Below, piece by piece: positions 3,001 through 6,000 of a stretch of 64,000 bases of DNA. Position 1 is the stretch's first letter. The number at the start of each line of letters is the position of its first letter. Position numbers: made by a program. The stretch lies in the NCBI RefSeq assembly GCF_009931435.1, contig NZ_CP043414.1. The stretch is one strand, 5' to 3'. The stretch comes from Escherichia coli (GTDB lineage: Bacteria > Pseudomonadota > Gammaproteobacteria > Enterobacterales > Enterobacteriaceae).

Positions 3001-6000
3001 GCAATAAGTGATTAGCATCACAGATTTATCGCGTATATATCATTTTTTTGTGACTTATTTATTAAAGGAATAAGAAAGGAAATTTGAATTAAAGACAAAG
3101 GCGCAGTACAGAAAGTACTGCGCCCAAAGAGGTTTTATACGGCTTTATTGCGCTTCATGACCATTGCCACAATAAGGCTGAGTAAGAGCGCGCCAATAAT
3201 CCATATCAGCGCACGACTGCCCTGGGACCACAGACTGTAGATGAAGCCAACGATCACCAACAACATAACCAACGTGCCAACGATAAGAATCGGCAACGAG
3301 GCATGGATATCATGACGCAGGCGGATCGCCACCACAAACACCGCCAGGTAGCAGATCAAAAAGGTGGCACTGGCAACGCTGGCGAGTGAGCCTAAATTTA
3401 GCGCCGCCGTCATCAGCATAATCAACACCACGACGATGATGTTGCCCCAGGTACTCTGCCGCCACAGAGATTTATTCATTAGCTTCGGCAGTTCGCGTTC
3501 GCTTCCCATGTTGTCCATGATGTTAAACACGGCGAACAGGTTCGCGTTGATGGCTGAAGCCGTCGCCAGTAAAGCACCGATGACAACGATCACATAACCC
3601 ACATGCCCGAGGAGCGGAGATGCGGCCTGCGCTACGGCGGTATCGGCATATTTTTCTAACTCTAATGCCGATACATCGCTAAGCAGTACCAGCGCCAGCG
3701 CGATGTAAAGCAGTGTGGTAACGCCAATCGCCACCAGAAACGCCCGTGGCATAATGACCGCCGGATCTTTCACTTTATCCGCCGCGTTCGCCATCATGCC
3801 AAAGCCCGCATAGGCAAGGAAGGTTATCCCGATACAGGAGAAGAACGCACCGGAGCTGGGAGGCGCAGAGACGGAAATATGCGCCGGTTGTAGCGACCAG
3901 ACACCGGCAATAATCAGCAATAACAGGATCATCATTTTAATGCCGACGAGGATCACTTCCAGCCGCCCTACCGCATGGTTGCTTAAGGAGTTGAAAAGCG
4001 TCATCACCGCAATGATCCCCAACGCGTAGAGCAGAATAAGGTGCTCCTCCTGGCTGCCTTCATGCAAAAACTGCACGGCATAAGCGCCAAAAGCACGGGC
4101 GACCATGGCGATGCTTACCGCCAGCGTCAACAGGTACAGTAACGAGAGCGCCAGCGAAAAGACGCCGTTGCCTAATCCGCGACGAAAGAAGTCGATAATA
4201 CCGCCATTGCTGGGATAGCTCGCCCCCAGACGCGCATAGGCATAACCAGAAAACATCGCCACAATACCACCAAAAGCAAAGGCGACCCAGGTCGAGGCTT
4301 CCATTAGCAACGCAGCCTGCCCCAGCAGCGCGAAGATCCCCGCCCCCACCATTGCCCCAATGCCAATGGAAACGACGTTCCATAGACCGAGGGGTTTGTT
4401 ACCGTTATTACCTTCCGTGTTCATCATGATCAGCCCTTAAACACGTTATAGCCGAGTTGATTAGCGACCGATGCCACCATTTTTTGACCGCGAACACTGT
4501 TGCCTTCTTCGTCCAGTGGTGGTGAAAACGCGGCAATTCCCATCACGCCAGGGACAACCGCCAGAATACCGCCACCTACACCGCTTTTGCCCGGTAAACC
4601 AACGCGATATGCCCAGTCACCGGAGCGACCATACAGCCCTTCCATCATCATTTCGGCCAGAATGCACGGCACGTTGTCGGCCTGAAGAACGCGTTTATGC
4701 GTCAGCGGATTCACACCACCCGCCGCCAGCGTCGCGCCAAGCGTTGCCAGTTCAATAGTATTGAGGAGCGTGGAGCACTGACGGGTATACACGTCACAGG
4801 CTTCCATTGCATCACAATAGAGATATCCGGCGGAGTACAGCAGCCAGGCTATGGCCCGGTTATGGAAGTTGGTTGTTTGTTCCGACTGGTTGACTTCATC
4901 AGAGAGCGCTACCTGCTCACCAGCCAGTTGTTGTTGGATATGTAAAATTCGCTGCCAGCGTTGTTCAGTATTTTCAGCGTTAATCAGGCTGGTGGTGGCA
5001 ATAGCGCCAGCATTTACCAGTGGCGAAAGCGGTTTGCCGCCATGCAACTCTAAGGCGATAACGGAGTTAAAGGGCAATCCGGTCGGGTCAGCGCCAACTT
5101 TGTCCTGTACCGCCTGCGGGCCGACATCTTCTAACGCAAGGGCTAACGTACAGACTTTTGAGATGGATTCCAGCGCAAAGCGGTAATCACTGTCACCCGC
5201 GCTAAAGACTTTACCATCGCAGGTCACGATAGCCACTGCCGCCAGTTGACTGGGCACATTCGCCAGAAAGGGAATGTAATCGGCATTTTGTCCGCCGTTA
5301 AGTGAGTGAAATTGGGTGTAAGCCTGATCCACTGCCTGCTGTAATGTGTTTGCATCTAACATCTTTTGTTAACTCCTTTTTATAGATGCGGGAGGGGATT
5401 CCTCACCCCGGTGCCGATTTTCAGGCATCCTGATTTAACTTAGCACCCGCGACTTAACTACAGGAAAACAAAGAGATAAATGTCTAATCCTGATGCAAAT
5501 TGAGCCGATTTTTTAATCTTTACGGACTTTTACCCGCCTGGTTTATTAATTTCTTGACCTTCCCCTTGCTGGAAGGTTTAACCTTTATCACAGCCAGTCA
5601 AAACTGTCTCAAAGGAGTACGTTATGTCACAAACTATCGACCTGACCCTGGACGGCCTGTCCTGCGGTCACTGCGTTAAACGCGTGAAAGAAAGTCTCGA
5701 ACAGCGCCCGGATGTTGAACAGGCGGATGTGTCTGTCACTGAAGCGCACGTTACCGGGACTGCCAGTGCAGAACAGCTGATCGAAACCATCAAACAAGCG
5801 GGTTATGACGCATCTGTAAGCCACCCAAAGGCTAAACCGCTGGCGGAGTCATCAATCCCGTCGGAAGCACTGACAGCGGTTTCTGAGGCGCTTCCGGCAG
5901 CGACCGCCGATGACGATGACAGCCAGCAGTTGCTGCTGAGCGGCATGAGCTGCGCCAGCTGTGTCACCCGCGTACAAAATGCGCTGCAAAGCGTACCGGG

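Follow-up and report, generated by a model that had tools for sequence, protein, structure and literature searches.

The stretch of DNA analyzed here, which we call the window, comprises 64,000 nucleotides from Escherichia coli and carries the copper-efflux gene copA on its plus strand. The zero-frame product is an 834-amino-acid P1B-type ATPase. Pfam identified two heavy-metal-associated (HMA) stretches, an E1-E2_ATPase domain (1.8e-53), and a HAD-type Hydrolase domain (1.6e-40) in the protein, and a GLSCGHC (CxxC) motif is visible in it, so that it has the features that define a P1B-type Cu(I) ATPase. RefSeq gives the name copA to a homologue in 5,422 of 5,426 complete E. coli genomes. The gene order around it, ybaT-glsA-copA-ybaP-ybaK-ushA, is that of K-12 minus ybaQ, which in K-12 lies between copA and ybaP.

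The copA promoter has an inverted repeat within its 19-bp spacer (Table 1), and its regulator is presumably CueR, as we take from established knowledge of PcopA. The sequence spanning the promoter (5524 to 5609) matches that of K-12 exactly. A generic sigma-70 scan with spacers of 16 to 18 bp did not pick up this promoter, as expected because its 19-bp spacer is of the MerR type. The cueR gene was not found in the window. In K-12, cueR abuts ybaT, and in Salmonella, Klebsiella, and others it directly adjoins copA. In the window, a gene for a TolC-family outer-membrane protein lies upstream of ybaT, together with the end of a giant adhesin gene, siiEA. The same island is present in E. coli AST215, where TolC-family, siiEA, type I secretion ATPase, and HlyD genes lie between ybaT and cueR. 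A reading of the window made from its sequence alone had proposed that the island displaced cueR. The proposal is reasonable, and the absence of cueR from the window agrees with it; the displacement itself is seen in AST215 and is therefore indirect for the window. CueR is a trans-acting regulator and its operator is intact, so displacement of cueR should not matter for regulation of copA.

A slippery heptamer, C_CCA_AAG, lies immediately past the first HMA domain (residues 8 to 62) of CopA. Codons 67, 68, and 69 of copA are CAC (5822 to 5824), CCA (5825 to 5827), and AAG (5828 to 5830), and the −1 frame entered at 5824 reads CCC AAA GGC TAA. The predicted shifted product is 70 amino acids long, ends in ...SVSHPKG, and contains one complete HMA domain (Pfam PF00403, residues 8 to 62, E = 8e-14) related to solved copper chaperones and to ATPase metal-binding domains. 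The sequence-only reading had placed the site at 5824 to 5835, at codons 67 to 69, with GGC and TAA following in the −1 frame; all of these assignments proved correct when the sequence was read again. The bare heptamer string is not enriched, with 4 copies in the window versus 8.1 expected from shuffles, and by itself it is uninformative. The joint arrangement exceeds chance, because the heptamer is the sole in-frame X_XXY_YYZ heptamer among the 834 codons of copA, lies just after a domain, is followed by a −1 stop and a pseudoknot, and is conserved across genera.

Table 1. Coordinates of copA, its promoter, and the elements of the frameshift cassette (positions in the window)
Feature	Position	Strand	Description
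CueR-type copA promoter	5554-5584	+	−35 TTGACC; 19-bp spacer with dyad ACCTTCC-N7-GGAAGGT; −10 TAACCT
copA	5624-8128	+	Zero-frame product, 834-aa Cu(I)-exporting P1B-type ATPase; from the ORF read and Pfam
CopA(Z) coding path	5624-5835	+	Zero frame through codon 69 (5624-5830), −1 shift, GGC (Gly70), TAA
Slippery heptamer C_CCA_AAG	5824-5830	+	X_XXY_YYZ register; last base of codon 67 plus codons 68-69
−1 frame stop TAA	5833-5835	+	One codon past the shift site
Pseudoknot stem 1 (S1), 5′ strand	5837-5846	+	Conserved core CCGCUG; CGG (5844-5846) extends past a 1x1 internal loop
Pseudoknot stem 2 (S2), 5′ strand	5860-5868	+	GUCGGAAGC
Pseudoknot S1, 3′ strand	5870-5879	+	CUG-a-CAGCGG
Pseudoknot S2, 3′ strand	5890-5898	+	GCUUCCGGC

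The window was then compared with K-12 MG1655 and with other E. coli genomes. From 5736 to 6126 the window is identical to MG1655 base for base, a mismatch-free run of 391 nt that reaches from 88 nt upstream to 296 nt downstream of the heptamer and covers every RNA element of the cassette. Neither the heptamer nor the −1 stop has been lost relative to K-12, a loss that would have spoken against the earlier claim that the CopA(Z) frameshift site is intact; the comparison thus supports that claim. Over the whole gene, copA is 94.7% identical to the K-12 gene, with 133 mismatches. Four of the substitutions fall within the first 112 nt of copA (three synonymous and one nonsynonymous, Ile38Val), and four further base differences lie just 5′ of the start codon, beside the Shine-Dalgarno sequence. 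The 69 residues upstream of the shift site are those of K-12 except for Ile38Val, and Citrobacter, Salmonella, and Klebsiella likewise have Val at residue 38. The 83-nt cassette (5818 to 5900) was 100% identical in 5,343 of 5,422 complete E. coli genomes, while whole copA genes in those genomes were 90 to 95% identical to that of the window in about half of the cases and at most 98.9% identical in the best. The run of identity with K-12 is much longer than the cassette and may partly have arisen by recombination.

Downstream of the shift site, the sequence can form an H-type pseudoknot that starts 6 nt 3′ of the heptamer and has two crossing 9-bp stems in E. coli. In S1, 5837 to 5842 pair with 5874 to 5879 and 5844 to 5846 pair with 5870 to 5872; AAA at 5834 to 5836 can give three extra pairs in E. 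coli, so that 5834 to 5842 would pair with 5874 to 5882. S2 joins 5860 to 5868 with 5890 to 5898. The summed energy of the two stems is −27.1 kcal/mol, a value reached by 2 of 1,000 dinucleotide-preserving shuffles. We aligned the element across 12 lineages, namely Escherichia, Citrobacter, Enterobacter, Salmonella, Klebsiella, Cronobacter, Buttiauxella, Pluralibacter, Mixta, and three more enterobacterial contigs. The S1 core was 100% paired, with one pair changing from C-G through U-G to U-A, and S2 was 92.6% paired, with U-G, C-G, or U-A at one pair and A-U, G-U, or G-C at another. Altogether, 95.6% of stem cells were paired across the 12 lineages, against 22 to 52% for controls with slid partner columns, and two stem pairs carried compensatory changes. 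The 10-nt loop between the 3′ strands of S1 and S2 (5880 to 5889) varies freely among genera, whereas the S2 stem does not. A downstream stimulatory pseudoknot, which the sequence-only reading had named as something to look for, is therefore present and conserved, and we infer that S1 and S2 correspond to the published copA pseudoknot. No family in Rfam matched 5400 to 6300 at E ≤ 1. Most stem pairs are invariant, and the covariation is confined to two pairs plus a few one-sided changes. Moreover, a conserved peptide (P-L ... P-S-E-A-L-T-A ... L-P-A) is encoded by the stems and may add to the nucleotide conservation.

A nested stem-loop, rather than a pseudoknot, could in principle serve as the stimulator. 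The minimum free energy (MFE) fold of the single sequence surrounds the S2 hairpin with long-range outer helices (5839 to 5844 with 5922 to 5927 and 5848 to 5853 with 5915 to 5920), at −39.6 kcal/mol and z = −2.07. However, these outer helices are not conserved. They were absent from the 12-lineage consensus fold computed with RNAalifold, which cannot model pseudoknots and which selected S1 independently, with its C-G to U-A change and extended by 5844-5846/5870-5872. Both S1 and S2 are about 93 to 100% paired across lineages, and in the literature the element is called a pseudoknot and variants of stem 1 and stem 2 have been tested. The nested fold was rejected as the stimulator, and we consider it very improbable in this role.

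Conservation of the shift site itself was examined in the same 12 lineages. The copA sequences of Citrobacter and Enterobacter came from a protein-pattern scan of contigs, and those of the other genera came from contigs reached through CopA gene calls that were short or fragmentary; the most distant lineages share about 56 to 67% N-terminal protein identity. An in-frame slippery heptamer with a −1 stop one codon later was present in 12 of 12 lineages. The in-frame heptamer, located where domain 1 ends, is CCCAAAG in all lineages but Pluralibacter (11 of 12), which has CCCAAAA. The Pro codon is CCA in all 12 and the Lys codon is AAG in 11, and the preceding codon ends in C in every case, with H, R, S, F, or D as its residue. 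In every lineage the −1 frame reads GNC and then TAA or TGA at the same position. The zero-frame residues over the −1 stop vary among lineages (A, P, S, or T, followed by K, E, D, or N). The two codons after the heptamer thus change residue but keep the pattern NNT RAN, which preserves TAA or TGA in the −1 frame.

Synonymous codon identity was 0.90 for codons 67 to 92, compared with 0.52 elsewhere within the first ~140 codons (P = 2.4e-8 by the Mann-Whitney test). Within this core, the one synonymous site that varies freely is codon 82 (GCA/GCG), which lies within a loop. An RNA signal that overlaps a coding region would be expected to leave such a pattern.

The matches listed from the protein-pattern scan were mostly distant CopA homologues, with three Enterobacterales only; among them, nine CopA loci with an N-terminal HMA domain were scanned and the heptamer was present in two close relatives only. 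Photorhabdus copA and the more distant loci among these nine lack the site. A Pluralibacter gene ending in HPKN followed by a zero-frame stop was considered as a hard-wired chaperone and rejected, as another sequence from Pluralibacter continues in frame past this point (HPKTEPL). Because of this second sequence, the extra A that creates the stop in the Pluralibacter NCTC assembly is most likely an assembly indel.

We think it improbable that the observations extend the published breadth of the element, with the cassette (heptamer, −1 stop, and covarying pseudoknot) under nucleotide-level selection broadly in Enterobacterales, out to Mixta and the three further contigs. Should this breadth and the C_CCA_AAA variant hold and go beyond the primary paper, they would place the origin of CopA(Z) recoding in time and provide natural variants for the study of its mechanism.

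An N-terminal product of CopA might also come mainly from a separate short transcript ending in or just after domain 1, in which case slippage would be minor and the heptamer incidental. The title of Drees et al. (2017) mentions a transcript-level origin. On the plus strand, however, no terminator-like site was found between 5624 and 6400, and a short transcript lacking a stop codon would yield no defined 70-amino-acid protein, leaving the conserved −1 stop and heptamer without purpose. The synonymous constraint likewise coincides with the slippery site, the −1 stop, and both stems of the pseudoknot, and the literature provides ribosome-profiling support for frameshifting in copA. We give a separate transcript only a slight chance of being the main source. 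The view that the heptamer and −1 stop are by-products of protein-level conservation of an H-P-K-A-K linker, with no recoding role here, agrees with the conservation of Pro-Lys as protein in all lineages and with the lack of over-representation of the heptamer string in the window, but it has practically no probability given that the choice of Pro and Lys codons and the preceding C are kept despite differing residues, that the −1 stop is retained under changing amino acids, and that frameshifting has been demonstrated by experiment for an identical sequence.

Together, these results indicate that the element is almost certainly the cassette for programmed −1 ribosomal frameshifting in E. coli copA. 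Tandem tRNA slippage is the established picture for X_XXY_YYZ sites. At this site, a ribosome would be stalled by the pseudoknot, which lies 6 nt downstream and resists being unwound, while its P site holds tRNA-Pro on CCA (codon 68) and its A site holds tRNA-Lys on AAG (codon 69). In a fraction of ribosomes, both tRNAs would slip one base back and re-pair with CCC and AAA. The shifted ribosomes would then read GGC (Gly), terminate at TAA, and release the soluble 70-amino-acid CopA(Z), which is the first heavy-metal-associated domain and would act as a cytosolic Cu(I) chaperone. Unshifted ribosomes would continue to the full 834-amino-acid Cu(I) efflux ATPase. A single CueR-controlled mRNA could in this way yield pump and chaperone in a fixed ratio.

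This picture agrees with published work on the K-12 gene. Frameshifting in E. coli copA has good ribosome-profiling support, has been independently confirmed, and is described as efficient. Its stimulators are the slippery sequence, the pseudoknot, and the nascent chain, and single-molecule assays have been applied to the pseudoknot. A review gives the length of CopA(Z) as 70 amino acids, and the literature describes the protein as a chaperone that protects against copper. The element in the window is the same as this published copA/CopA(Z) site and not a mere lookalike; as such it is already known and ordinary. Frameshifting in the strain from which the window derives would be expected on the strength of published experiments with an identical sequence, which support it.

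For the genome of the window, the copper-efflux locus is complete, and one CueR-controlled mRNA should supply both the CopA pump and the CopA(Z) chaperone, as in K-12. The recoded product is overlooked in annotation, where PGAP shows the long coding sequence only. The 70-amino-acid protein was missing from the records examined, in which RefSeq/PGAP gives the 834-amino-acid coding sequence alone. Database proteins of 70 amino acids were considered as annotated CopA(Z) and rejected, as they are mostly out-of-frame reads reaching the same −1 stop; these spurious gene calls, ending in ...PPKG or ...HPKN, result from indels in assemblies upstream of or near the site. For scans that seek overlapping RNA signals by synonymous constraint, the copA cassette offers a clean positive control.

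The closest known system is copA of E. coli K-12, which has the same gene, heptamer, −1 stop, 70-amino-acid product, and CueR-type promoter as the window. Reportedly, it was for this gene that the CopA(Z) frameshift was described by Meydan et al. (2017, Mol Cell 65:207) and by Drees et al. (2017, Mol Microbiol 106:635). The window differs from the K-12 locus in that cueR is not adjacent and a type I secretion/adhesin island lies past ybaT. E. coli dnaX is likewise a chromosomal −1 frameshift gene, whose X_XXY_YYZ heptamer also ends in AAG (A_AAA_AAG, for the gamma subunit), and it shares with copA a downstream RNA structure, a near-immediate −1 stop, and a truncated functional protein. The dnaX shift site is also intact in the window (24548 to 24559, minus strand). 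The stimulators are a stem-loop and an upstream Shine-Dalgarno-like sequence in dnaX and a pseudoknot and the nascent peptide in copA. Finally, the stand-alone copZ genes of Bacillus subtilis, Enterococcus hirae, and Haemophilus influenzae also encode a single HMA domain of about 70 amino acids (ferredoxin-like, CxxC) that is a partner of CopA. In those organisms the chaperone has its own gene, whereas in the window it would be carved from copA by recoding.

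Aligned with the K-12 MG1655 locus (L001), the copA gene is mosaic. Over their full length, copA (5624-8128) and its K-12 counterpart (L001 6101-8605) are 94.7% identical; in the 3′ two-thirds mismatches reach 17 per 150 nt, but a stretch of 391 nt at 5736-6126 is perfectly identical. The match to the copA gene of the window is only 90-95% in about half of E. coli genomes. Recombination could be the cause of the identical stretch, as could selection on the frameshift cassette.

Several 70-aa database "proteins" ending in PPKG (P0073, P0078, P0082, P0086, and P0093, and at copA locus L083) were considered as annotated CopA(Z) and rejected. 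These entries are spurious, the product of indels that assemblies of Salmonella and its relatives contain upstream of the site; all terminate at the one conserved -1 stop codon. In Pluralibacter, the slippery site is the variant C_CCA_AAA, followed in the -1 frame by AAC TGA (L084 3201-3213, from a P. gergoviae NCTC assembly; P0056). One Pluralibacter assembly carries an extra A that splits copA, so that the -1 product appears as an ordinary 70-aa gene call ending HPKN*; a second Pluralibacter sequence reads through at the site. A homopolymer error in the assembly is the probable source of the extra A.

The -1 frameshift in dnaX, which yields the gamma subunit, is the other classic E. coli chromosomal site of this kind. 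As read on the minus strand of the window, the dnaX site is GCAAAAAAGAGTGAACCGGCAGCCGC.

Other features of the window
Feature	Position	Strand	Remarks
Island after ybaT	1-3100		At the place of cueR in K-12; TolC-family gene and giant BapA-related adhesin siiEA
TolC-family outer-membrane gene of the type I secretion/siiEA adhesin island	1442-2797	-	Codon 335 (of 451) is an in-frame stop
dnaX -1 frameshift site	24548-24559	-	A_AAA_AAG then AGTGA; intact

The HigA-family antitoxin gene ybaQ, located between copA and ybaP in K-12, is absent from the window at 8122-8484, and K-12 segment L001 8599-9328 has no counterpart in the window. E. coli AST215, which has the same island, likewise lacks an annotated ybaQ. 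At least 80% of the 3.2-kb island stretch in the window was found in only 957 of 5,426 complete E. coli genomes (top identity, 97.6%), and the version in other strains additionally includes a type I secretion ATPase and HlyD. The AST215 counterpart of the TolC-family gene is full length. The gene is probably a pseudogene in the window strain, and the island secretion system may therefore be defective there.

The E. coli arrangement of cueR and copA looks derived, since a MerR-family gene (cueR) directly adjoins copA, in divergent orientation, at six other enterobacterial loci, namely, those of Salmonella, Pluralibacter, Cronobacter, Klebsiella, and two further enterobacteria (L083, L084, L087, L089, L090, and L091), whereas in E. 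coli glsA-ybaT lies between the two genes, joined in some strains by the island.
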